Assembly: GCA_964596525.1 (NCBI GenBank)
Contig: CAZQUL010000001.1
Span: 1,147,773 to 1,211,772 of the forward strand
Direction of reading: 5' to 3'
From: an uncultured Gammaproteobacteria bacterium
GTDB taxonomy: Bacteria; Patescibacteriota; Patescibacteriia; Magasanikbacterales; GWA2-37-8
Length of the DNA stretch: 64,000 nt
In this document: piece by piece, positions 4,434 to 64,000 of the stretch
How the letters are laid out: every line of letters begins with the position of its first letter
Position numbering within the stretch: the stretch's first letter is position 1
Program-made: the position numbers and the translations under genes
The notes under the pieces: generated by a model
Told to the model about the DNA's origin: nothing
What the model saw: the letters and a program-made list of their open reading frames with translations, nothing else
Database searches by the model: none

Positions 4434-5450
4434 TTAGGCCTTGCTAAAAGCAGGCAATGAAGTAATTTCCGGATGCAGTCCAAGATAGGCGCGTGTGATT
4501 TTTTCTACTTCTGCTGGCGAAGCGGCTTCATCCATAAGCTGAACACGTAATTCCTTGGCACCATCAAAACCGGAAACATACGCCTTGTAATGCTTCTTCA
4601 TAATTGCAAAATTCTTCTTATCACCAAGAAGCTCATGGAACAGGTACGTATGTTCGATCATTGTTTCGAGACGTTCACCGACGGTTACGGTGTGATAATC
4701 CCGATTACGATTAAAAAGCCAGGGATTGCCAAAAATACCACGGCCGATCATCACACCGTCGCAACCAGTTTGAGCGACTTTCTGGCGCGCATCATTAAGG
4801 TCAACCACATCACCGTTACCGAGAATAAGTGTGCGCGTCGGTGAACTGTCGTAGGTATTGCGAATTTCGACGGCGCGGGCGACTCGTTCCCACCGTGCCG
4901 GTACGAGCGATAATTCTTTTTTGGTACGACAGTGGAGCGTAATAGCTGCCGGCTCAGTTTCAAGAAGATACGGAAGCCACGTTTCGAGGGTGTCGGTATT
5001 AAAGCCGAGGCGGGTTTTGACCGATACCGGCAACGTGCCGGCACCGCGCTTGGTAGCGCGAATGATTTCCTGGGCGAGACGCGGAGTTTTAATGAGTGCC
5101 GCACCCGAAGCTTGTTTCCCGGAAACGCTCTTGTCCGGGCAGCCCATGTTAATATCGATACCATCAAAACCGAGCTCCGCGATAAGGCGTGCGGTTTCAT
5201 AAAACGTATCCGGGTTGGCACCGAAAATCTGAGCAATAATGGGCCGTTCTTCGTCGGTATAGATAAGATCAGTGAGAATGCTTTCGCGGCCTGGAGAGCA
5301 GAGCCCGTCGCAGGATACGAATTCGGTCCAGATGATATCCGGCTTACCATGGCGAGCGATAAGACGCCGAAAAGCCGCGTCGGTGACGTTAGCCATCGGC
5401 GCGAGCACAAAGCATGGTTTTGGCAGCGTGGTCCAAAAACCGGAAATCAT
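4434..5450 (-). CDS. dus: tRNA-dihydrouridine synthase
   Basis: LAPMANVTD N-terminus, TIM-barrel Dus motifs, catalytic-Cys region GCP. Confidence 0.8.
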   Translation of the reverse strand: MISGFWTTLPKPCFVLAPMANVTDAAFRRLIARHGKPDIIWTEFVSCDGLCSPGRESILTDLIYTDEERPIIAQIFGANPDTFYETARLIAELGFDGIDINMGCPDKSVSGKQASGAALIKTPRLAQEIIRATKRGAGTLPVSVKTRLGFNTDTLETWLPYLLETEPAAITLHCRTKKELSLVPARWERVARAVEIRNTYDSSPTRTLILGNGDVVDLNDARQKVAQTGCDGVMIGRGIFGNPWLFNRNRDYHTVTVGERLETMIEHTYLFHELLGDKKNFAIMKKHYKAYVSGFDGAKELRVQLMDEAASPAEVEKITRAYLGLHPEITSLPAFSKA

Positions 5451-43757: not shown

Positions 43758-44177
43758 TTATCTATTAGAGTTATAAATATGAGGCTTAAATACATTCACA
43801 GATTTTTTATTCTCCGGAAAAACTAGCAATTCATTACTACATTCTTGATTAGGGCATTTAAAATTATCTTCGTTTGAATTAACTGGGACAAGTCTCATGG
43901 CAATTTGTTTTTTATCCCAGCAGGATGTGCAAAATGGCCCTCTTTCATGCATGGGTATTTTTTTATCCTTGAGCCAATAAGTATAGTTAATAACCTCTAT
44001 ACTTTCTTTAAACTTCAGTTTCTCCATTAAATCCTGATTTTTTTCTTTTAGAGCTGCATTTTCTGCAAGTAATTTACTTACATCTTTTTGCAACTCAAGG
44101 ACATTATTATGCAATTCAATGTTTCGAGCTTGCCCAGCCAGGTCAGCTAAAGTTTTAAGATTATCTAGAATAGCCAT
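43758..44177 (-). CDS. Coiled-coil protein with a C-terminal CxxC...CxxxC zinc ribbon, hypothetical (AT-rich)
   Basis: CTSCWDKK...CPNQEC; markedly AT-rich codon usage compared with the flanks. Confidence 0.45.
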
Positions 44178-44180
44178 AAA

Positions 44181-44672
44181 TTAACTTAAAATTTTAACTA
44201 AAATTTTCCTCTTCATTTCATAACCAGAATTTTCATAAAACTTTATAACCTTTTCATTAGCACTTTCAACTTCAAGAAAAATTCTAGTACAATCCTTCTC
44301 TTTTAAATATTTCTCAATTTCTTCAATTAACCTTGAACCAATGCCTAATTTCCTCACTTCTTCTCTCACAAATAACTCAAGAATAAAACCATTCTTATTC
44401 TCCCCCTCCGCAATCCGCTCAGTTTCTTCCTGATCTTCAATGATACCTGCCGTAAAACCGACAATCTTACCATCATCAAGCGCCACGAACATCCGACCAT
44501 CCTTTTCTTCGAGAGATTTAAGCAGCGCAGGCACAAAAGCTTTTCCGAATTCCGGCGAGCGACTCGAACGAACAGGCTGTTCGAGTCCGGCGTAATAATC
44601 TTCAAACTCATTCATGAGACGGATTATCGAATCTGTGTCGCCGGTTTTAAATTCTCGAATCGAGATATCCAT
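44181..44672 (-). CDS. GNAT-family N-acetyltransferase
   Basis: Acetyl-CoA motif A-like RKLGIGSRLIEEIEKY; start at M18. Confidence 0.6.
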   Translation of the reverse strand: MDISIREFKTGDTDSIIRLMNEFEDYYAGLEQPVRSSRSPEFGKAFVPALLKSLEEKDGRMFVALDDGKIVGFTAGIIEDQEETERIAEGENKNGFILELFVREEVRKLGIGSRLIEEIEKYLKEKDCTRIFLEVESANEKVIKFYENSGYEMKRKILVKILS

Positions 44673-44685
44673 AACAGACGAATGA

Positions 44686-45255
44686 TTATTTAATCGGATC
44701 CGCCTCCAAATAAATATCCGCAAACCTCTTCTTCATCAATTTAACGTGCGTTTCGCGGATACTATCCGAAAAATCTTCCGGCTTAACACCCCATTTCTGT
44801 AATTCCGATTCAATATCTTCCGCGGTTTTTTTGACAATCAATACCGACGGAAATTTCTCTACTGAACGAATTTCTTCTCGCAAGAACTGCTGCCACGTGC
44901 CGTCGATGACCCATTCCTCCTTGTCGATTTCGGCGTTTATATAGTCGTGCTCGGTAACCACCCATCCACCGGGATATTCGTAGATCTGAGCGTTCGGCGC
45001 GATTTCTTTAACCAGCGGGAGAAGCTCTTCGCACACGACTATGCACGTACCTTTCTTAAAAACATCGGCCGCGTTCATTTTGCGCAGAGCGGCAACTTTT
45101 TCGTAGGCCTGATTCGTCATGTCAATGAGACGCTTTTTGATTTCGTTTTTTTCTTTGTTTTCTTTAAAACCGGAATCTCTCTGGCCAATGTTAGGGCGAA
45201 GCGTATCCATAGGATTACTTTTTGATTTCACTACCAACCTTTTTAATCTCTCCAT
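44686..45255 (-). CDS. Hypothetical protein (start uncertain; M16 at 45210 would avoid overlap with the upstream gene)
   Basis: ORF only. Confidence 0.35.
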   Translation of the reverse strand: MERLKRLVVKSKSNPMDTLRPNIGQRDSGFKENKEKNEIKKRLIDMTNQAYEKVAALRKMNAADVFKKGTCIVVCEELLPLVKEIAPNAQIYEYPGGWVVTEHDYINAEIDKEEWVIDGTWQQFLREEIRSVEKFPSVLIVKKTAEDIESELQKWGVKPEDFSDSIRETHVKLMKKRFADIYLEADPIK

Positions 45256-54443: not shown

Positions 54444-54611
54444 TCGCGCTATTAGTCTAGCAAAGGAAACGGAAATTACTGTATATCTTTGAAGGTTTGC
54501 CAAGCGTCAAGATATCCTTGGATTATTTTATTGACAACAAGAAACGCCCAAACTATCTTAATGATCGGATTGCCAAATCAACCACGGCAATTCTGAGAAA
54601 AGGAGCCTGTC

Positions 54612-54800
54612 ATGACAGGAAAGTCCGTGCCCGAAGAGGGCGTCGTCACGCTGTGCGGTACGCAGGGATGCTGCCCCACGGTCGATTTCACCGAGCCCGG
54701 CAAGGTCATCATCAAGGATGACCATGGCGGCCGCGTCGAGCTGAACGCGGGCGAGTGGAACGATCTGAAGGGCAAGTTCTCCGCGACCGGCAAGCGCTGA
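54612..54800 (+). CDS. Small Cys-containing peptide (62 aa); candidate radical-SAM substrate or RiPP precursor
   Basis: SD AAGGAG 6 nt upstream; core TLCGTQGCCPTVDF; sits immediately 5' of the rSAM/SPASM gene. Confidence 0.5.
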   Translation: MTGKSVPEEGVVTLCGTQGCCPTVDFTEPGKVIIKDDHGGRVELNAGEWNDLKGKFSATGKR

Positions 54801-54889
54801 TCCAACCGCGCCTTCGGGCGCATCACCGGCTCCTAGCCACTACGCGTGGTTAGGAGCCATTTCATTTACGTGGAATTCGGAGGGCTCAC

Positions 54890-56224
54890 ATGTGGTCAAA
54901 ATATCTGTGCACGAAGGAACGTAATGGGATCGTGGCCGTATTCCACGAGCTGCATCCTGATCCGCTCTTTTTTCCCAAAGGTGAATGGGAGCGTCTAAAG
55001 CTAGGGAAAAATCTTGAAAACGAACAGGGGTTTGACGCCCTGCGCGACGCTAAGCTCCTTATCGTAGGACCGGAAGTGGATGAGGAGGAGTTCGCGACTA
55101 CAGAACGTCATCTTGAGCGTAAGCTCAGCCAACCAACCATCCTGTATCTTATGACCGCCCAAGGCTGCAACATGGTCTGCGGATACTGCCCGGTTCCCGG
55201 CTTGGCAAAAAAATACGGCGCATCATTGCTATCGGCGTCGGATGCCGTAGCGGGAATCAACCTGTGGCTAGAGCACCTCAAGGAGAGCTACAATCCTACC
55301 ACATCCTACTTCGTCATTTTCTACGGCGGTGAACCGCTCTTGAATAAACCGACTATCCGCGCATCAATTGATCATATTGCCAGGCTAAGAGCGGAAACAA
55401 ACGCCCTGCCGGAGAAGCTCAACCTTATGATCGCCACCAACGGCCTTCTCATGGATCAAGAGATGATCTCGCTCTGCAAAGAGCACGGCATCATGGTGGC
55501 GGTTGGGCTCGACGGTCCGCGTGAAGTACACGATGCGTTGAAAGTCGATACGCAGGGCTTGGGAACATTCGAGCGTATCGTTGCGGTCATCCGAATGCTG
55601 GTAGTGCAGGGGGTTAGAACAGTCGTATCGACGACAATTACCCCTTTCAACATAGGCCGGATGAAGGATTACTCCCGATTCTTTGAGGAGTTGGGCGTTG
55701 AAAAATTCGGCTTCAACTTCCTCAAAGGGAAAGCATTGCTCGAACTCGTTGGTCCTGACGGTCAAAAAAATTACTATCGTCAGGCTGCCCGCGGAGTCAT
55801 CGAACATGCTCGGCTGCAGCACCGAACAGGTTTTGAGTATCAGATGGAGAAGAAAGTGCTGGCTTTCAACCAGCGCGATTTTTTCCCGGTTGACTGCACC
55901 TGTTACGGAAACCAGCTCGTAATCCAACCCGATGGGCAGATTTCCAACTGCCCGTTCTACAAAGCCTGTCTGGGGCAGGTCGGAACAATCACCCCAGAGT
56001 TTCGCATAAGCGAGCAGGAAATTGTACATTCCTGGCGCAAACGACTTCCGCTCTATCATTCGGGTGCAGCCAAGGCTCTCAGCGGCGGGGGCTGCGCATG
56101 GAGTTCGATCGAAGTAAACGGCACACCTTCGACCGAAGATGAATCCAGCCGTATTTTCTCAGAGGAGGCGCTCGATGAACTCATCTGGTCTCGCTACGAT
56201 AAGCTCCGAACAGGCCAAGCCTAA
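54890..56224 (+). CDS. Radical SAM enzyme with a SPASM/twitch C-terminal domain and an N-terminal extension of about 85 aa (RRE-like?); peptide-modifying maturase candidate
   Basis: CNMVCGYCP (CX3CX2C); C-terminal CTCYGN...NCPFYKAC...GGGCAWSS auxiliary-cluster cysteines. Confidence 0.7.
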   Translation: MWSKYLCTKERNGIVAVFHELHPDPLFFPKGEWERLKLGKNLENEQGFDALRDAKLLIVGPEVDEEEFATTERHLERKLSQPTILYLMTAQGCNMVCGYCPVPGLAKKYGASLLSASDAVAGINLWLEHLKESYNPTTSYFVIFYGGEPLLNKPTIRASIDHIARLRAETNALPEKLNLMIATNGLLMDQEMISLCKEHGIMVAVGLDGPREVHDALKVDTQGLGTFERIVAVIRMLVVQGVRTVVSTTITPFNIGRMKDYSRFFEELGVEKFGFNFLKGKALLELVGPDGQKNYYRQAARGVIEHARLQHRTGFEYQMEKKVLAFNQRDFFPVDCTCYGNQLVIQPDGQISNCPFYKACLGQVGTITPEFRISEQEIVHSWRKRLPLYHSGAAKALSGGGCAWSSIEVNGTPSTEDESSRIFSEEALDELIWSRYDKLRTGQA

Positions 56225-57029
56225 GCTCGGGATCATTGGGGGTTCCGGGCTGTGCAGTTTTCCGGAAATTGAAGTGGTCGCACGGGTTAAACCATCGACC
56301 AACTACGGAGAACCTTCCGACGACATCCTGCTCTGCCGTCACGCCGGGGAATACATTGCGCTTCTTCCCCGCCATGGTTCAAAACATGCCTTTGCCCCCC
56401 ATAAGGTTCCTTACAAAGCGAACCTTTCCGCACTCAAAGCGCTCGGCGTGGAATATGTGATTGGCACCTGCATCGTCGGGAGTCTCAAAAAAGAACTACC
56501 ACCGGGCTCGTTGGTAATTCCGGACCAGTTCGTCAATCTTACCTGGGGCCGTGACGATACTGTCGCCGCCGACGCTGGAAGGTTCGTTCATCTGCCGATG
56601 GGGAACCCGTACTGCCAGCACCTGCGGGAAAAAATAACGGAAGCGGCGCGCGAGATCGGACAGGAATTGATAACCGAAGGGACTGTCGCCGTTATCCAGG
56701 GGCCGCGTTTTTCTACCGCAGCGGAAAGCCGCTGGCTCGCGAAGCAAGGCTGGGACGTGGTAAACATGACCCAGTACCCGGAGTGCTACTTCGCCCGCGA
56801 ATTGGGAATGTGCTATGCAGCCATCGCCGCCGTAACTGACTACGACGTGGGGCTCCAAGAGAGCCTGACCATCGATCCGCGTCATATGGAAGGCATTCTC
56901 GAAATCTTCAGGATGGATATCCTGAAGACCAAAGCCCTGCTTCTTTCCTTCATTGAACACCAGGCAGCGAGGCTGGCGTGTGGATGCGCCAACCTGACAC
57001 TTAAGGCGTACTACGAACACAACCTGTGA
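56175..57029 (+). CDS. S-methyl-5'-thioadenosine / 5'-deoxyadenosine phosphorylase (PNP/MTAP family)
   Basis: GIIGGSGL; AVIQGPRFSTAAESRWL...WDVVNMTQYPE; start overlaps the rSAM 3' end by about 50 nt and is uncertain. Confidence 0.7.
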   Translation: MNSSGLATISSEQAKPKLGIIGGSGLCSFPEIEVVARVKPSTNYGEPSDDILLCRHAGEYIALLPRHGSKHAFAPHKVPYKANLSALKALGVEYVIGTCIVGSLKKELPPGSLVIPDQFVNLTWGRDDTVAADAGRFVHLPMGNPYCQHLREKITEAAREIGQELITEGTVAVIQGPRFSTAAESRWLAKQGWDVVNMTQYPECYFARELGMCYAAIAAVTDYDVGLQESLTIDPRHMEGILEIFRMDILKTKALLLSFIEHQAARLACGCANLTLKAYYEHNL

Positions 57030-57151
57030 CCTTGTCCGCTCTTGGCAAGGTCTTTTTTATACTAAGGTTGTCAGATAATCCTTTTTATACTATTCTCAGA
57101 CATAGAGTAACGAACCTTAACAGTAGTAATGGCTGTGGCAGCCAAGGAGTT

Positions 57152-58834
57152 ATGAGCGTGCTTCAAGCAAAAAACATCGAAAAAAGTTACGGCCCTTTGA
57201 ACGTACTCAACGACGTTTCTTTTTCCCTTGCGCGTGGAGCAAAAGTGACCCTGGTAGGCGGGAACGGCAGCGGAAAAACTACCCTTCTACGTATTCTTGC
57301 TGGGCTGGAAACACCCGATCATGGGACGGTTGGATTTGCTGAAGGAAGCTGCCTTGGTTACCTGCCTCAAGATACCAGCCTCACCACGGATGAATCCATT
57401 ACCACGTATGTGCGAGCCGCTACGGGCATCGAAAAACTGGAGCATGAAATGGAGCGCCTGGCAGACCAGCTCGATAATCCTGAAAAGATTAGTCTTTATG
57501 GGAGTGTCCAGGACCGCTATGCGCATCTTGGCGGTTATGATTTTGACCGTAAACTCAAAGTGATGCTTGATGGTTTCGCCATGGGGACGGTTGAGCCGAG
57601 CCAATCTGTAGGCGAGCTGAGCAGTGGGCAAAAAACAAAGGTAGCCTTGATAGCGATACTGCTCAAAGGTGTCGATATCTTGCTCCTTGATGAACCGACT
57701 AACAATCTTGACCTGCCCGCCCTTATTTGGCTGGAAGATTTTCTCAAAAAGTCTCCAGCCGCCTGCTTGATCGTTTCGCACGACCGCCGTTTCCTCGACC
57801 GGATCGCCCGCAAAACACTTATTCTTGATACCAGGACCCACACTCTTAGCACCCATACCGGAACGTACTCCGAATACGTAGCTTCCGTTGCAAAGAATAC
57901 CATCCGCCAGCATGAGGAGTATGAGCAGCAGCAAAAGGAGATTGGACGTCTCGAACATCAGGCTCGCGAAAAGCGCTCTGCATCGGCGCGCGGCGAGCGT
58001 TTTGCCGGGAGCGATAACGACAAGTTTCTCCGCGGATTCAACCGTGATCGCGCCGGAGCGTCGGCCCATGTCGCCAAAACAATAGAGAAAAGGATCGAAC
58101 GGATCGAAAAGGTGGAAAAGCCGTTCGAGCGCGAGCCTCTTAAGATCCAGCTGACTGCCGAAAAGAATCCTGGCGTACGCGACATCGAACTCGTCAATGT
58201 CCTCGCTGGATACCAAAACGGATTCAGGATCGGCCCTCTTTCGCTCTCCATAAGCTACGCAGAGCGCATCGCTATTCTTGGTCTTAACGGGAGTGGTAAA
58301 TCCACGCTTCTGAAGGCGCTTACCGGCGAACTGTCGCCGCTCGGTGGACAGGTGGATATTGGTTCGGGTATTCGCTTGGGCAATCTCATGCAGGAGCACC
58401 AAAACCTGGACCGAGAGAAACGGCCGATTGACGCAGTGGTTGAAAAAACCAGCTTGAGCGAACAACTCGCTCGCGCCCAGCTGGCAAAATTCGGTCTCAG
58501 CGACAACCAGGCAACTTCTCCCATCAGCGCTTTAAGCCCCGGCTCTCGAGCACGCCTCATCCTTTCGGTCTTCGCGGCGCAGTCAGTCAATGCCCTTATC
58601 CTCGATGAGCCAACCAACCACCTGGATCTGGAGGCTCTAGAAGCGCTCGAAGAGGCCTTGGAAACGTATGCTGGCACCGTGATTCTTGTGTCGCACGACC
58701 GGGATTTCCTTGAAAAAACCGCCTTGAACGCCACCTACCTCCTTGAGGGCGGTGCGCTGACACGGATTCCAGACTATAAAGCCTATATCCGGGAGGCCGA
58801 AGAAAAAGCCCGGAAACTTCTCAAGCTCCTCTAA
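57152..58834 (+). CDS. ABC-F family ATPase (two tandem ABC domains, no TMD)
   Basis: Two Walker A sites (GGNGSGKTTL, GLNGSGKSTL), two signature motifs, an inter-domain linker. Confidence 0.8.
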   Translation: MSVLQAKNIEKSYGPLNVLNDVSFSLARGAKVTLVGGNGSGKTTLLRILAGLETPDHGTVGFAEGSCLGYLPQDTSLTTDESITTYVRAATGIEKLEHEMERLADQLDNPEKISLYGSVQDRYAHLGGYDFDRKLKVMLDGFAMGTVEPSQSVGELSSGQKTKVALIAILLKGVDILLLDEPTNNLDLPALIWLEDFLKKSPAACLIVSHDRRFLDRIARKTLILDTRTHTLSTHTGTYSEYVASVAKNTIRQHEEYEQQQKEIGRLEHQAREKRSASARGERFAGSDNDKFLRGFNRDRAGASAHVAKTIEKRIERIEKVEKPFEREPLKIQLTAEKNPGVRDIELVNVLAGYQNGFRIGPLSLSISYAERIAILGLNGSGKSTLLKALTGELSPLGGQVDIGSGIRLGNLMQEHQNLDREKRPIDAVVEKTSLSEQLARAQLAKFGLSDNQATSPISALSPGSRARLILSVFAAQSVNALILDEPTNHLDLEALEALEEALETYAGTVILVSHDRDFLEKTALNATYLLEGGALTRIPDYKAYIREAEEKARKLLKLL

Positions 58835-58885
58835 GAAGTCCGGCCCGGCATACTGCATGTCCGGGTTTTTAAACACTCCCAATCT

Positions 58886-59524
58886 ATGCCCACTCCCCGC
58901 GAGCTTGCCCATACCCTCAACAAGTCCCTGATGATCTGGCTAAAAGGAACCGGCCGTCTTGTCATCGGACTCGATGGTTACGCCGGATCAGGCAAAACGA
59001 CGTTAGCGGATGAAATTGAAAAAATTAACCCACACGTCCTCGTTATCCATCTCGACGATTTCATCAGGCACTGGAAAGTGAGAAAAAACTTGGTCGAAGC
59101 ATCCTCAGACCCAGCTATTCTTTTTGAGCACTCGTGGTATCGCTATGAAGAATTGGAAAAACTGATAGCAGCATTTCGACATGGCGAGAAAAATTTTTTA
59201 ACCCAGACGTACGATTTCGAGAAAAATGACTTCGGACCAGCCAAAGAGTTCGATCTTTCCAAAACAATACTGCTTGTCGAAGGAATATTTTTATTCAGCC
59301 ATAGAAATCCTCTGGGAAATCTCTGGGACAAACGGGTCTACATCGAACTTGATTTTACAGAAGCGGACAAACAGCGCATTGCTCGCGAACAAGAGAGATG
59401 GGGCGCGGCCTACGTACCCGAAGATCATCCGGATAACTGGACTAAATACTTTAAAAAGCACTATCGGAAGTATTGGGAAAATACCCAGCCCCAAAAATTT
59501 GCCGACCTCGTTTTAAAGAGGTAA
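58886..59524 (+). CDS. P-loop nucleoside/nucleotide kinase (uridine kinase/PRK-like)
   Basis: GLDGYAGSGKTTLA P-loop; LLVEGIFLF. Confidence 0.55.
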   Translation: MPTPRELAHTLNKSLMIWLKGTGRLVIGLDGYAGSGKTTLADEIEKINPHVLVIHLDDFIRHWKVRKNLVEASSDPAILFEHSWYRYEELEKLIAAFRHGEKNFLTQTYDFEKNDFGPAKEFDLSKTILLVEGIFLFSHRNPLGNLWDKRVYIELDFTEADKQRIAREQERWGAAYVPEDHPDNWTKYFKKHYRKYWENTQPQKFADLVLKR

Positions 59525-59893
59525 AATCCGATCTAAGAACTGATAGATTTTAATCGACGTGTTATACTATTTCTATTCATTATCCACCCTTTTCGTCGTC
59601 AGTTTTTTGATCAAAAAAGCGACAGAAAAAACAGTGCGGGAAATGGTTGTAGATTCCGAAATCCTTCATGCTTGATCGAAAATACTGCTCTTGATGAGCA
59701 GTATTTTTGTATGTTTATCACAACCCTCCTCGATCGTTTTTGCGATCATGGATAGAAAACACATGGGTGAGATTCTTTATCGCACCTCAATAGCCATCTA
59801 AATGGATACTAAGGTTTGAAGGGCATGTCGAGCGATCGGAAAGATCGTGACTTGTAGCTTTGCCCTGGAAGCGTGGATTGAAAACCGAACTAT

Positions 59894-61786
59894 TCAGACC
59901 GTCGTGCGTTCCTGGGGATCGATCCAACCCAGGTTTTTCAGCTCATCCTCGTTGAGGTCGCTGTACTCGGTCACGATAGTAGCTCGCGGATCCGGGAAGT
60001 AGCTCGGCCAGGCAGGCACTTCGCCACCGAGCTGACGGAGCCGACGCTCTTGGGTTTCCATCGTGCTGAGAAAGGGAAGGAGGGTGTTGTGCACCCAGTG
60101 CTGACGCTGGCGCTTGAGTGCCGCGATGGGCGTGTCCGGGGAGGTCTCGATGATGGAGCGTAGCTGACCGCTGTGCTCGGCGAGCATGACGGCCAGGGTG
60201 GTTTGGTCGGCTTGGCAGGCCGCAAAGAGACGCCGACGCTCCTCGATACTGCTCGTAGGATCGACCCAGCCGTACTCGCGACTGAGCCGGTCCTTACTGA
60301 CAGACCAGGGAGCCTTGTTGAGGAGCAGGTCAGATCCACTGATCAGCATGGCTGGCCAGATTGGTACGCTTATTCCATCGCGCATCATAGTTTCCTCACA
60401 GCTCACCAGGTTGATACGACACTTCTCACCATCGTCCAACCAGCGTTCGTGCAGCAGGCTCTCGATCTGGCGATGGGTGCGGCAGATGCCGTTCATGTCG
60501 GGGCGGGTAAGCTCACAGATCATGCGATCGAGGTTTAGGCGAGCCTCAACCAACTTCTGACGGGCGTCAAAGTGCTGTGCCAGCCGCAGCCGGACCTCGA
60601 TATTCAGGCCATATGTGTCGGGGTTGTAGCCTTCGAGGTCGATGTTATTCCTGGCCTCGCGGTGTCCTGCACGGCCCTGTTGCCCGCGGTTGCAGTACTG
60701 TTTCCAGTCATGGGGCGCAAAGCGCTTGCCACCGATGATGATGATCGTAAAGACCAGCATGATCCCGCGGCAGAGCCACTTTACGCACCAGGCAGGGGTC
60801 CAGATGGTGTCGGTCATTTCCACCATCTTGGAGAAACGATGCAGAGCGCCGCGAGAAACCTGCCAGCTTCCGCCACCGTACTTAGCGGCGAGTTCGTCGC
60901 GGCCAGCAGTGGTTTGCGAGAGCGCGGCAATTCGATCTAAGAAGACCTCCTTGTCCTTGCGGATCTGGTCGAGACGCTTCTGGAGCGCCTGCCGATTATC
61001 CTTCTGTTTGGCATCACGAAGAGCGGTGAGACGCTCTACTTCCTGGGCAGTCTTGGCGTCAAAGGGTTCAATGGTGGCAGCCAGGTTTTCTGCCTGCTCG
61101 GCCATCATTTTCGCGGCGGGCCCGTTACCGTAGTGACCGGAAATCTTTCCGGCAGCTTCGGTGCGGGCATCGCTGCGTACCTTGTCCACCTCCTTCACCA
61201 CGGCATCACGCTGCGCTTTGCGCTCGGCGACGTAGCGATCAAGATCGCCCTGCGCCTTCGCGGCCTCTGTGACGGCGTTCTCTCCGAGCTCCTTCTGAGC
61301 AGCGATGAGGAGTTGGTCGCACTTCTTCTCCTCGGTCTCGTTCGCCATCTGCACGATCTTGTCGACGTTGGCCTTCTCCTCAGCAACGATGCTTTTTTCG
61401 ATGTCTGGAGCAAACCAGGACACCTCGACAGCAACCGACGTGAGGCCCCAGCCGACGAAGAGAGCAAACAACAGGCGGAACACGTCGCCTTGGGTCGTGG
61501 AGGTAGACGTGTCCTGGGTGATGTACATGATCTCAAAGACCAAGATCACCGTCGAGAATATGAGTCCCAGAAACCGGGACCATATCCAGCCCAGCTGATC
61601 GTTCGCGGCGTACGTGAAGCCCCAGGTGTTACCCCAGGCCCACACATCCACGAACCACTGCATGCTGAGGATGAGAGAGAAGAAGATGATGTAGAGCGCA
61701 ACCCCTTTGGTGTAGAGAGGCGTGGCATCGCCATACTTCTTCATGCCCGGTAGCACAGGGATCCTGCTCAATTGACGAGCTTCCAT
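59894..61786 (-). CDS. Large membrane protein: 3 TM, about 200-aa coiled coil, TM, about 290-aa C-terminal domain; hypothetical (GC-rich)
   Basis: Start at M24 with AAAGGGGAG SD; architecture read from the sequence; no confident family. Confidence 0.5.
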   Translation of the reverse strand: MEARQLSRIPVLPGMKKYGDATPLYTKGVALYIIFFSLILSMQWFVDVWAWGNTWGFTYAANDQLGWIWSRFLGLIFSTVILVFEIMYITQDTSTSTTQGDVFRLLFALFVGWGLTSVAVEVSWFAPDIEKSIVAEEKANVDKIVQMANETEEKKCDQLLIAAQKELGENAVTEAAKAQGDLDRYVAERKAQRDAVVKEVDKVRSDARTEAAGKISGHYGNGPAAKMMAEQAENLAATIEPFDAKTAQEVERLTALRDAKQKDNRQALQKRLDQIRKDKEVFLDRIAALSQTTAGRDELAAKYGGGSWQVSRGALHRFSKMVEMTDTIWTPAWCVKWLCRGIMLVFTIIIIGGKRFAPHDWKQYCNRGQQGRAGHREARNNIDLEGYNPDTYGLNIEVRLRLAQHFDARQKLVEARLNLDRMICELTRPDMNGICRTHRQIESLLHERWLDDGEKCRINLVSCEETMMRDGISVPIWPAMLISGSDLLLNKAPWSVSKDRLSREYGWVDPTSSIEERRRLFAACQADQTTLAVMLAEHSGQLRSIIETSPDTPIAALKRQRQHWVHNTLLPFLSTMETQERRLRQLGGEVPAWPSYFPDPRATIVTEYSDLNEDELKNLGWIDPQERTTV

Positions 61787-62255
61787 AACACACTCCCCTT
61801 TCATTCGTAGCGTTTGCGAACCGTGCGTGTTTTTGGGTCGAAAATTCCTACCCACCTAGATGTTCTAGAAAAAAGCTAAGTAGATAGGAATTATCGGGTT
61901 TTCAATTGTACATGAACAAATGCCTGAGTTTCGCTCTTTATTTTGAGCTCATCAGTGCCACTATCTTTTGGCAGACTCAAACACCTGTATGAAGAGGTCT
62001 TTTTTTACCGTAAAAAATGGCTTTTTATACACTTGATCGTCCATTGAAATAACTACGGAATGTACCAGAAAATGGGATTTTGGTCAATAGATGTGCTTTG
62101 GCGCAGTTTCAGGTACTTTCTTCTGCGCATGAATAAAATCTTAAATTTGATACAGGAGTCTGAATCAAAGATTGAGATAAGAGAACTTTCTTTACAGATG
62201 CCTTTTAATAGTACCGGGTTCGGTCCTTGGCAGCAGAACTACAGAGGATAACAAA

Positions 62256-62283
62256 AGCACCGCGAAGGCGGTGTTTTTGTTTA
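62256..62283. terminator. Bidirectional terminator (gcaccgc-gaag-gcggtgt) downstream of the OLD-like gene
   Basis: Hairpin with flanking A/T runs. Confidence 0.55.
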
Positions 62284-62347
62284 ATAACTATTTATCTGGC
62301 GGACAAGTGCGGAGTATTTATGCGGGGGGATGAAGCGTTCATCGAAC

Positions 62348-63997
62348 TTATATTTTATTATTCTTCTCGATAAATTTTTGAATCTTTCTGCAGATTAGAA
62401 TCATTTCTGAAGAAAGATCGGAAGTGGTTTTCATATGACCAAGTGCTTTTTCCGCAAATTTTCTTTTGTTTTTAATCGCACCATATTTATCAGCTAAAGA
62501 TTCCAGGCCAAAGGTGCTTTTAAGATACTGGCCCATACGTTTATCTTTATAATCATCTTCAGTTATTTCTTTATCCAAGCCCTTTGTAGCACCCATTTCC
62601 TTAGCTACATTTTTTAAAATATTTGGGGATATAAGATTTTCAACCTCCCTTCTTCTTAGTCGATAAAAATTTATTCCCATCTTCTTTTTAATAGCTTTCA
62701 GGCGATCATCTTTCTTATTTTTTCTAGCAGTAGTTTTCTGTTCAATAGTCTCATCTATATCGTTATCCGCAATAAGAAATATATTAGACACAATACTACT
62801 TAAGGATATTTGATCTATCTGGTTATCTTCTATGAAATCCCAGTGCGATAGATTGGCACCTGAATACTCGATAAACGAATAATGCGCATCTTCGCGGTAA
62901 ACCTTATTCTTCTTAGCTATCATGTTCTGCTGCCATAGATTAAATGCATGTCTTAGATACATCCGATCAGTTATGCCCTCAACCCAAATTGTGGCGTTTG
63001 AAAGAAATACTGACGAGTTCTTAATCCCTAAGATCTCAAGCGTCTGCTTATCTTTATTGTTTACATTTTCAATTGAAAATCTTGGCGCTATTTCAACATG
63101 TTCGCTTTCTCTAAGTTCTTTTTTAAGCCTAAAAATAGAAACATCTTCATAATCCAGACTTAAATCTAGAAAATGGTTAGAATGAGTAGTGACAAAGAAT
63201 TGAATATTATTATACAAGGGAGAAGATAATAGTTCGTTCATTAATGTTCGCTGAAGGCCAGGATGGACTAGTAATTCAGGTTCTTCAATACATGCTATAA
63301 GAGGCTCATCTTTATTCTCCTTTGCATGTTCGAATAAAGGAAAGGTTATCGTTATTATATTTTGTAAACCATCACCAACGTTATAAATTTCTTTTTCTAC
63401 TTCTTTTCCAATTTTTATTGTTAAAACATCATGGCCAGCTCTAGGGATAAGAACAACTGACTTCCCTTCAAAAAATTTTTCCGATAAATATTCTTCGTAT
63501 TGCTGAACAAGATTTCTTTCTTTTAAAGTCCCAAGTAATTTAATTTTAATGGCTTCGTAAATGTGAAGGCCAGAAAACAATTTTATATTTGGGTACTTAA
63601 ATTCCTCACCTTTTGAAAAATAATCTCTTATGGTTCTTATTTCATAAATATCATCCTTTATGCCAATTGGGGGGCGCAAACCTCGAAGTATTGGTATATA
63701 CAATCGGTCAAATTTTTTTGCCTTTGAAACTCCATCCAGGAGAGTTCTAAATTCGGAGAAATCTACTAGACACAGACTATGTAATGCTGTTATAACCTGA
63801 CTTTCATTAGCATACCTAAGTGAACCGGAACGAGGCTCTGACGTGATTAAACGGACATGCCCTCTTTGTTTAAGATTTTCTACGACTTTATAAAGATCTA
63901 AAATTTTTGACACCAAGTCGTCTTCTTCACCGAATTCTCTTTCGAGATTAATTGATTCAATAGAAACTCTAATATCCGGACCGAGTTGGCTAGTCAT
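62348..63997 (-). CDS. OLD-family-like ATP-dependent nuclease (ABC/AAA_21-type ATPase C-terminal half plus Toprim-like domain); N-terminus likely beyond the window edge
   Basis: IACIEEPELLVHPGLQ (Walker B and Q/D-loop), FFVTTHSNHF (H-loop), IWVEGITDRMYL Toprim-like acidic motif. AT-rich codon usage. No P-loop within the window. Confidence 0.5.
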   Translation of the reverse strand: MTSQLGPDIRVSIESINLEREFGEEDDLVSKILDLYKVVENLKQRGHVRLITSEPRSGSLRYANESQVITALHSLCLVDFSEFRTLLDGVSKAKKFDRLYIPILRGLRPPIGIKDDIYEIRTIRDYFSKGEEFKYPNIKLFSGLHIYEAIKIKLLGTLKERNLVQQYEEYLSEKFFEGKSVVLIPRAGHDVLTIKIGKEVEKEIYNVGDGLQNIITITFPLFEHAKENKDEPLIACIEEPELLVHPGLQRTLMNELLSSPLYNNIQFFVTTHSNHFLDLSLDYEDVSIFRLKKELRESEHVEIAPRFSIENVNNKDKQTLEILGIKNSSVFLSNATIWVEGITDRMYLRHAFNLWQQNMIAKKNKVYREDAHYSFIEYSGANLSHWDFIEDNQIDQISLSSIVSNIFLIADNDIDETIEQKTTARKNKKDDRLKAIKKKMGINFYRLRRREVENLISPNILKNVAKEMGATKGLDKEITEDDYKDKRMGQYLKSTFGLESLADKYGAIKNKRKFAEKALGHMKTTSDLSSEMILICRKIQKFIEKNNKI

Positions 63998-64000
63998 TTC

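Follow-up and report, generated by a model that had tools for sequence, protein, structure and literature searches.

An OLD-family nuclease gene and a DUF4407 membrane-protein gene with a hammerhead in its leader: probably two neighbouring transcription units rather than one defence module

Positions 59530–64000 of a 64,000-nucleotide (nt) stretch of contig CAZQUL010000001.1 (assembly GCA_964596525.1), called the window in the following, hold two long open reading frames (ORFs), both on the minus strand, and the question raised by this locus is whether they work together. One of them is an AT-rich gene, cut off by the window edge, for an OLD-family protein, that is, an ABC-type ATPase joined to a Toprim nuclease. 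The other is a GC-rich gene for a membrane protein of 630 amino acids (aa) with a DUF4407 domain. A sequence-only reading of the window had suggested that the two may constitute an uncharacterised defence module. Our results make it rather probable that they instead represent two independent minus-strand transcription units, namely a stand-alone, horizontally acquired OLD nuclease gene and a lineage-conserved DUF4407 unit. Keeping the membrane protein apart from the nuclease in this way averts a false call of a new defence system.

The abrupt changes in composition that had been noticed by eye are borne out by calculation. The GC content is 0.454 in a PRK-like kinase gene, 0.396 in the following spacer, 0.588 in the DUF4407 gene, 0.403 in the next spacer and 0.335 in the OLD fragment, compared to a mean of 0.513 for the window. 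Size-matched sliding segments of the rest of the window were used as reference (mean 0.513, standard deviation (SD) 0.025–0.026, range 0.396–0.586). The OLD fragment is ca 6.8 SD low and falls under every other segment of its size, and the DUF4407 gene is ca 3 SD high and exceeds every other one. The GC content at third codon positions (GC3) is 0.74 for the DUF4407 gene and 0.27 for the OLD gene, the gene mean being 0.56 (SD 0.09). Since three short genes elsewhere in the window reach GC3 values of 0.71–0.80, the DUF4407 gene stands out less than the OLD gene, which is the sole gross outlier. The Arg-rich ORFs reported antisense to the GC-rich gene are also present, with lengths of 121–206 aa.

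To follow the OLD-like gene past the window edge, we used a 17.9-kb locus, L001, from a 22.9-kb assembly contig that encodes the exact 630-aa protein. Over the final 10 kb of the window it shows 0 mismatches, and it extends 7,786 nt further (window position = 71787 − L001 position). The remaining 95 codons of the gene are located there, at L001 7505–7786, i.e. in the 282 nt past the edge, and they contain the Walker A motif GVNNSGKS; the P-loop N-terminus anticipated beyond position 64000 is thereby recovered. The full product is 644 aa long (L001 7505–9439). What lies inside the window is indeed the C-terminal part, but it amounts to 549 of the 644 residues (85%) rather than the two thirds first estimated. 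The motifs found in it are EEPELLVHP for Walker B and the D-loop His, TTHSNH for the H-loop, and, for the Toprim part, WVEGITDR followed by IADNDID. The NCBI record gives a 660-aa product from a GTG codon that overlaps the preceding DUF3761 gene (L001 7457 as compared to 7505). The ATG start of the 644-aa form is favoured by the N-termini of homologues and by an AAGGAG site.

As judged from its sequence and its predicted fold, the AT-rich gene is an OLD-family ATPase–nuclease with a full set of catalytic residues. In Pfam, AAA_15 and AAA_21 alone score above the cut-offs, and the PADLOC models NsnB, GajA, Old and AriA match the protein at 1e-15 to 1e-18. By sequence, the PDB yields a single relative, the Class 1 OLD from Thermus scotoductus (Ts OLD, 6P74), and the alignment extends through the Toprim glutamate. 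More than 2,300 relatives were found in a homologue search at E<1e-5, most of them full-length, of ca 620 aa and 36–40% identical. In an alignment of 40 family members, K48, E333/E334/E336, H340, H367, E435, D439, D506, E546, E548 and K606 are invariant, and D508 is nearly so. The ATPase residues among these sit in GVNNSGK48S, IE333E334PE, LLVH340P and TTH367S, such that the N-terminal ABC ATPase has its Walker A lysine, acidic Walker B, D-loop histidine and H-loop histidine, and the C-terminal Toprim has the acidic residues of an OLD-type metal A and metal B. The invariant residues correspond in order to those listed as essential in P2 Old, i.e. K37, D299, H306 and H332, E398/D453/D455 for metal A, E402/D541/E543 for metal B, and K550 (PMC7049728). 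Comparison of the family with P2 Old by hhalign gives a probability of 97.1%, with VEGITD placed against VEGKTE at the end of the alignment. The AlphaFold2 (AF2) model is confident (pLDDT 85.3, pTM 0.82), and its top Foldseek matches are the full-length OLD proteins Retron-Eco8 OLD, GajA and Ts OLD (E 9e-13 to 1e-9).

Two results speak against this assignment. The Pfam model OLD-like_TOPRIM (PF20469) stays below threshold for the protein (14.6 vs 23.2 bits, E 0.051), and the C-terminal fragment alone has no sequence match in the PDB or PADLOC. The same Pfam model matches 29 of the 40 family members at E<=1, with 6.5e-4 as the best value, and we ascribe the shortfall to the limited sensitivity of sequence models, which is outweighed by the fold match. 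The OLD identity proposed earlier was to fall if the full-length protein proved to lack a Toprim domain, as an SMC/RecF-like ATPase would; with the P-loop present in the full-length sequence, a C-terminal region of OLD-type fold and the complete catalytic set, this objection fails.

The separation of the two genes is seen at two levels. In the 561-nt spacer between them, an intrinsic-terminator-like hairpin lies 75 nt past the OLD stop codon, and it is followed by a sigma-70-like promoter of the DUF4407 unit (Table 1), an equivalent of which appears in the upstream alignment of DUF4407 orthologues from other loci, the copy in locus L035 included. Because this terminator and this conserved promoter lie in the spacer, the genes are taken to be separate transcription units. 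The second level is that of occurrence. No OLD gene is found near the DUF4407 orthologue in any of seven other loci, and no DUF4407 neighbour is found at the OLD homologue in any of 17 other loci. Moreover, L035, a locus from a close relative, has the gene order of L001 on either side of a 5.7-kb segment (L001 4100–9805) that holds the OLD gene, but lacks the segment itself. The joint module thus finds no support in this comparison. Nor do the two roles that had been offered for the membrane protein, island cargo or abortive-infection effector, agree with a gene that is conserved in seven other loci, in three other contexts, and has its own promoter.

With 60 bits, the DUF4407 domain of the membrane protein (Pfam PF14362, residues 55–299) is well over the cut-off of 31.3, and the family is likewise matched by each of the 34 relatives tested. 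The start ATG at 61786 is backed by the N-termini of orthologues and by a GGGGAG ribosome-binding site. Hydropathy places helices at residues ca 27–51, 65–91, 101–124 and 332–353, with an Ala/Glu/Lys-rich helical stretch of ca 200 aa at 126–325 and a helical C-terminal region. The architecture read from the sequence alone, with three N-terminal transmembrane (TM) helices, a long helical stretch and a fourth TM helix, is therefore retained, and only the size of the C-terminal part changes, to ca 275 aa from the 290 aa given before. The AF2 model, built from 8 sequences, has the same all-helical layout at low confidence (pLDDT 59.9, pTM 0.28). On the basis of the charge distribution, the topology is likely N-in, which would put the ca 200-aa helical domain on the outer side of the membrane and make the C-terminal domain cytoplasmic.

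Close homologues are restricted to eight proteins of 65–100% identity, with the seven other loci at 65–77%, and a further search with a profile that included distant relatives returned the same 8 proteins only. The wider subfamily comprises 93 full-length clusters among 1.84 billion representatives, 75 of them at E<1e-10. An alignment scan of genome contigs gave one named relative, in a metagenome-assembled genome of Candidatus Magasanikiibacteriota (Patescibacteria/candidate phyla radiation, CPR), and a scan of genome contigs with the single protein gave no match. There is no relative in the PDB and no match to PHROG or NCBIfam, and a full-text literature search for DUF4407 gave passing mentions only and no functional data. 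The alignment of the family lacks a block of sufficient conservation for a scan of viral contigs. PADLOC, which recognises the OLD-like protein, has no consistent match among 34 members of the DUF4407 family; a weak LeoBC match at 1e-4 is regarded as coiled-coil noise because it is confined to one of the 34.

The orthologous genes adjoin Dus and RsmH/MraZ, RF1/L31 and DsbA/UvrA, or lie in the vicinity of a DUF4419 gene. Shared synteny joins L001 with L035, L004 with L034 and L036, and L002 with L033, which is consistent with vertical descent of the gene. In all four loci tested (L001, L002, L004 and L005) the gene has a GC content above that of its flanks and a high GC3, as would fit a well-expressed gene, and we consider its product to be a lineage-specific envelope protein. 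Between L001 and L035 the DUF4407 proteins are 69% identical and the flanking HIT gene ca 90% (tblastx); either the protein evolves fast or it was exchanged between lineages. In addition, a block with genes for a PRK-like kinase, an ABC-F ATPase, an MTA/purine phosphorylase and a radical SAM protein (L001 12037–17335, window 54452–59750) is missing from L035, where the HIT gene directly follows the DUF4407 unit; indels of ca 5 kb thus border both edges of the unit.

An alignment of the eight loci shows that conservation reaches past the DUF4407 ORF on both sides. The elements found there, on which the sequence-only reading had made no claim, are the most original feature of the region. In the 5′ leader, ca 65 nt downstream of the unit's own promoter, Rfam model RF00008 detects a type III hammerhead ribozyme with 46.4 bits, at an E of 2.4e-8 for 3 kb and of 5.2e-7 for the whole window; apart from tRNAs, Rfam has no other match in the window at E<=0.01. 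Intact hammerheads occupy the same position in three other loci (L004 7765–7821, L034 1419–1475 and L036 4714–4770). All 16 pairs form in each of the four sequences, two of them, in stem II, with compensatory changes, and the core positions are canonical throughout (CUGAUGA, GAA, GUC), with L034 having a C at the free position 7. The core and three stems that define the class (C3 U4 G5 A6 N7 G8 A9, G12 A13 A14, A15.1–U16.1 and H17; PMC3088659) are thus complete. Two points count against the hammerhead. The score is just below the Rfam gathering value of 48.5, and scores of 42.6–42.8 in the three other loci are below it as well. In addition, only four of the eight loci have it intact, with decayed copies in L035 and L033 and none in L002 and L005. 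Because of this distribution, it is dispensable for the DUF4407 gene.

Two further elements are conserved. Closer to the start codon, the leader forms a long hairpin for which RNAalifold on seven loci gives 23 pairs, 3 of them with compensatory changes. Directly past the stop codon, a structured 3′ element has a mean pairwise identity of 0.89, compared to 0.78 for the coding sequence (0.85 at codon positions 1+2 and 0.64 at position 3). In its consensus fold, two hairpin arms are closed by a weak stem of 3 bp, and a covariance model built on the element finds DUF4407 3′ ends only, with no copy elsewhere in the window or in 11 loci. We propose it, from this conservation, as a candidate new RNA motif; on the opposite side, the fold shows one-sided G–U changes only and no compensatory pair. 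An exact 19-mer of the element also occurs in 19 metagenome stretches and 1 viral stretch, and these were discarded as chance matches inside unrelated coding sequence.

Complementarity over 8–19 nt links the leader to the beginning of the 3′ element in seven of the eight loci, and it reaches 19 bp in L036. The RNAduplex z-scores relative to shuffles are −3 to −6.7 in seven of the eight, and one A–U to G–C compensation is seen between L004 and L002. The complementarity could reflect end-to-end pairing of the mRNA or an inverted repeat at the DNA level. The possibility that the 13-nt inverted segments are transposon ends was considered and rejected, as conservation runs well outside both. In L036, an insertion of ca 90 nt (ca 4771–4860) with duplicated AATTGAA at its flanks separates hammerhead and leader, and the inserted end lengthens the 5′–3′ duplex.

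A mechanism can be suggested on this basis. Transcription of the unit would begin at its conserved promoter, and the hammerhead, by the predicted cleavage, would remove the first ca 90 nt and leave a 5′-OH mRNA headed by the folded ribozyme. The stability or the translation of the membrane protein would then be set by the leader hairpin and the 3′ element, possibly with the two ends paired to each other, and the RNA elements would in this way regulate an abundant envelope protein. Taken together, hammerhead, leader hairpin, 3′ element and end pairing offer a testable case of ribozyme-linked mRNA processing at a chromosomal gene outside the phage context. One can go further and speculate that this is a hammerhead-trimmed, end-paired mRNA specific to the CPR lineage in which the 3′ element is a new functional RNA, for example a second self-cleaving ribozyme, a ligation guide or a protection of the 3′ end, and in which a 13–19-nt complementarity of leader and 3′ UTR would close the RNA to a loop or circle, but we consider this extension unlikely.

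The same elements can be read in another way, namely that the DUF4407 unit is a mobile or phage-derived cassette bounded by ribozymes, which would move between genomes. The hammerhead at the 5′ end and the 3′ element, possibly a new self-cleaving or ligation-guiding RNA, would excise from it a defined RNA that, with its pairing ends, possibly circularises. Bacterial hammerheads are found mainly in prophage transcripts, where they stand beside single genes, presumably to divide long RNAs into mRNAs of gene length (PMC3088659), and they cluster with other self-cleaving ribozymes (PMC4604425). The eight loci present four contexts, conservation breaks off sharply at the promoter on one side and where the 3′ element ends on the other, and the ends are complementary, with their one compensatory pair; the raised GC content in the four loci tested and the lower identity of the protein compared to the HIT gene (69% vs 90%) also fit a cassette. 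However, synteny is shared within subsets of the loci, as vertical descent with rearrangement predicts, and a recombinase, a PHROG match and copies in viral contigs are all lacking. Furthermore, the 3′ element matches no known ribozyme class in Rfam, and it is intact where the hammerhead is lost or decayed, which is the case in half of the loci. We therefore regard the cassette as quite improbable and prefer a vertically inherited unit with regulatory RNA elements. No paper was found that links hammerheads to CPR bacteria.

The history of the OLD gene appears to be a different one. Its family is AT-rich (0.28–0.40) in every host examined, including hosts with a GC content of 0.55–0.58, and it is patchily spread, with members in Bacillus, Paenibacillus, Halobacillus, Methanosarcina, Methanoculleus, Geobacteraceae and CPR. 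Relatives are present on 10 IMG/VR prophage contigs, frequently at contig ends, and on Bacillus plasmids. Serine recombinases adjoin two homologues, one of which also has a Shedu gene nearby, and in a P2/186-like Vibrio prophage one relative occupies the interval from the cI repressor to the integrase. At the present locus, the flanking integrase or direct repeats that the sequence-only reading had in mind are not there, since the 17.9 kb of L001 contain no integrase and no convincing direct or inverted repeats bound the insertion. Mobility is indicated instead by the absence of the 5.7-kb segment from the syntenic L035, and this absence, together with a GC content of 0.33 vs 0.51, supports an accessory, variable segment. 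As far as composition and synteny can tell, the OLD gene is a horizontal acquisition within this segment by a small-genome CPR bacterium, presumably, from the one named relative of the membrane protein, a relation of Candidatus Magasanikiibacteriota.

By analogy, the most likely function of the gene is single-gene anti-phage defence by an ATPase-gated nuclease. Those solitary OLD proteins that have been investigated act against phage. The OLD of Vibrio cholerae (Vc OLD) nicks DNA and blocks replication of ICP1 (PMC12392090), and P2 Old cleaves the anticodon stems of tRNA (PMC12445682). As in P2 Old, Vc OLD and Ts OLD, the ATPase would control a two-metal Toprim nuclease that, on infection, would cut phage DNA, host DNA or tRNA. 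The cleavage would block phage replication or kill the infected cell, and no partner protein would be required. If so, the gene is a single-gene defence candidate in a tiny-genome CPR bacterium, a few kilobases from cas1–cas2.

There are two points that weigh against a stand-alone defence role. The first concerns the partners of other family members. Among 18 family loci, this one included, 13 have no abutting ORF downstream of the OLD gene and four have mutually unrelated ones, and in L045 an ORF of 156 aa lies 109 nt downstream; no upstream partner is conserved across the 18. The four products are proteins of 247 aa and 297 aa, a PIN_12 protein and a DUF3427+NOV_C protein (the genes abut or overlap the OLD gene at L007 5469–6212, L008 7460–8353, L009 7930–9078 and L012 6767–8143, each being different). 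In part of the family, the downstream slot may be a position for swappable effectors. The family may then sometimes work with an effector that is absent here, and this copy may be incomplete. No remnants of the downstream partner genes of the homologues were found in L001, and those partners are themselves mutually unrelated.

The second point is that the archaeal OLD class Cran1 is described as having a role in the cell cycle and not in defence. A corresponding reading of the present gene, as a host ATPase–nuclease of DNA repair, replication or the cell cycle, resembling Cran1 or the SMC/RecF-like ATPases, has little probability in our judgement. It would have to explain a GC content ca 7 SD low, the lack of the gene in L035, the closest syntenic relative, and a patchy spread from Bacillus to CPR at 36–40% identity. 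It also conflicts with the presence of relatives on prophages and plasmids, beside recombinases and in one case near a Shedu gene, and with the fact that the best structural matches are defence OLD proteins. Anti-phage defence by the OLD gene alone is thus the reading that we retain.

The weakest of the alternatives is the two-gene module itself, with the OLD protein as sensor or nuclease and the DUF4407 protein as abortive-infection effector: adjacency on the same strand at a distance of 561 nt, the deviation of both genes from the mean composition of the window, the variable genes that abut some OLD homologues and make a swappable partner conceivable, and the single LeoBC match (1e-4) speak in its favour, but with opposite compositions (GC 0.33 vs 0.59), a terminator and a conserved promoter in between, 7 DUF4407 loci without OLD and 17 OLD loci without DUF4407, an L035 that has the DUF4407 unit without the OLD segment, and a LeoBC match that is coiled-coil noise in 1 of 34 members, it is highly improbable.

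The coordinates of the elements discussed above are collected in Table 1.

Table 1. Features of the window tail, in window coordinates.
Feature	Position	Strand	Basis or remark
OLD-family ABC-ATPase/Toprim nuclease gene, 3′ 85% (549 codons + stop)	62348..64000	minus	frame open at window edge
Intrinsic-terminator-like hairpin, CACCGCcttcGCGGTG then CTTTTGTT	62250..62273	minus	terminator scan (L001 9514–9529), sequence reading
Sigma-70-like promoter of the DUF4407 unit: TTGACC, 17 nt, TACATT, TG before −10	62059..62087	minus	promoter scan
Type III hammerhead ribozyme in the 5′ leader	61923..61981	minus	Rfam RF00008; predicted cleavage after GUC (C at 61974)
5′ leader segment ATTGAAAACCCGA	61894..61906	minus	complementary to 59877–59889, just past the stop codon
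Conserved long leader hairpin, arms AATTCCTATCTACTTAG and CTAGGTGGGTAGGAATT	61843..61892	minus	RNAalifold, 7 loci
630-aa DUF4407 membrane protein gene	59894..61786	minus	Pfam, hydropathy, orthologues
Conserved structured 3′ element, ca 120 nt directly past the stop codon	59774..59893	minus	alignment, no Rfam match
Likely bidirectional terminator: 14-bp hairpin, A and T runs at flanks	59677..59709	.	terminator scan (L001 12078–12110; minus of L001 = plus of window)

The last hairpin of the table sits between the DUF4407 unit and the convergent PRK-like kinase gene. On the other side of the locus, past the window edge, no partner of the GajB or AriB type that could have accompanied the OLD gene is present. 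Its upstream neighbour is instead a gene for a small secreted DUF3761 protein of 103 aa, which ends 12 nt before the OLD start and is preceded by three unannotated genes, two of them with secreted or lipoprotein-like products. Farther upstream come an anchored 169-aa protein and more lipoprotein genes, and then, ca 6.6 kb away, cas1–cas2. The genes between L001 1547 and 7493 thus form a series for secreted, lipoprotein or anchored products with unassigned functions, including one lipoprotein with a HEIGH zinc-protease motif, and part of the series belongs to the segment (L001 4100–9805) that L035 lacks. The cas1 and cas2 genes themselves (L001 1–906) are 6.9–7.8 kb past the window end, and the 800 nt that follow cas2 contain no CRISPR repeats. 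Inside the window, a second islet of low GC content (0.32–0.38; 43758–44723, minus strand) adjoins dnaK and codes for a 139-aa coiled-coil protein and a GNAT acetyltransferase.

Finally, the components of the locus can be compared to known systems. Relative to the Pfam family DUF4407 (PF14362), the subfamily present here adds a fourth TM helix and the helical C-terminal domain of ca 275 aa, with invariant Trp and Pro residues. The hammerhead shares with the bacterial type III hammerheads (Rfam RF00008; Perreault et al. 2011) the canonical core, the three stems and the closed loops on stems I and II, and also the location directly upstream of a single gene, where cleavage would set the 5′ end of the mRNA. 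It differs in its setting, as the gene whose leader it occupies is chromosomal, is conserved in the lineage, codes for a membrane protein of a CPR bacterium and has no phage genes nearby. Moreover, its place is past this gene's own promoter instead of between cistrons, and half of the orthologous loci have lost it or carry a decayed copy.

The OLD proteins have been divided into classes by gene context, with Class 1 standing alone, Class 2 accompanied by the GajB helicase, Class 3 in retrons, and Class 4 in PARIS with a separate AriB (PMC10568477). No helicase, reverse transcriptase (RT) or AriB is found among the L001 neighbours. In the case of Class 2, i.e. Gabija GajA (8SM3, 8X5I) and the Bp OLD (6NK8), the difference is that an adjoining GajB/UvrD-like helicase is lacking both here and in 16 of the 17 homologue loci examined; in L010 an annotated ATP-dependent helicase lies upstream, not downstream, of the homologue. 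Downstream of the present gene there is no ORF within 561 nt, and the next gene is that for the DUF4407 protein. Because the helicase neighbour is missing, the gene pair that defines Gabija is absent. A Class 3 retron of type I-B does not fit either, as none of the L001 genes has an RT domain and no retron RNA is matched by Rfam in L001 1–7800, and Class 4 differs in that ATPase and Toprim are here fused in one 644-aa protein.

What remains is the solitary context of Class 1, with the DUF3761 gene upstream, and the terminator and then the independent DUF4407 unit downstream. To our knowledge, this is the least understood class of OLD proteins, for few of which an anti-phage role has been shown. 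With its members P2 Old, Ts OLD, Vc OLD and the E. coli YbjD, the present protein shares the single gene without a dedicated partner and the fusion of an ABC-type ATPase (Walker B Glu, D-loop His) to a Toprim domain with E-x3-[DE], DxD and [DE]xE ligands. Ts OLD is also the best match by sequence in the PDB, albeit at 18% identity only, and the accessory prophage position of P2 old is one that relatives of the gene occupy as well. On the other hand, the protein is longer (644 aa vs 528–586), and its invariant basic residue K606 is far downstream and not 7 residues past the second acidic pair. After the Toprim core, the model has four helices, and 170 of the 204 residues of the C-terminal region of the Class 2 Bp OLD can be aligned to it; that region of Bp OLD includes a helical domain which Class 1 reportedly lacks (PMC7049728). 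This length and this C-terminal region count against a plain Class 1 assignment, as they seem to misfit the description of that class as smaller and without the helical domain. The gene thus looks like Class 1 by context, and closer to Class 2 by size and by the modelled C-terminal fold, and it is placed here with the solitary OLD proteins. By joining a solitary context to a Class-2-like C-terminal region, the family blurs a classification that is based on context and size.

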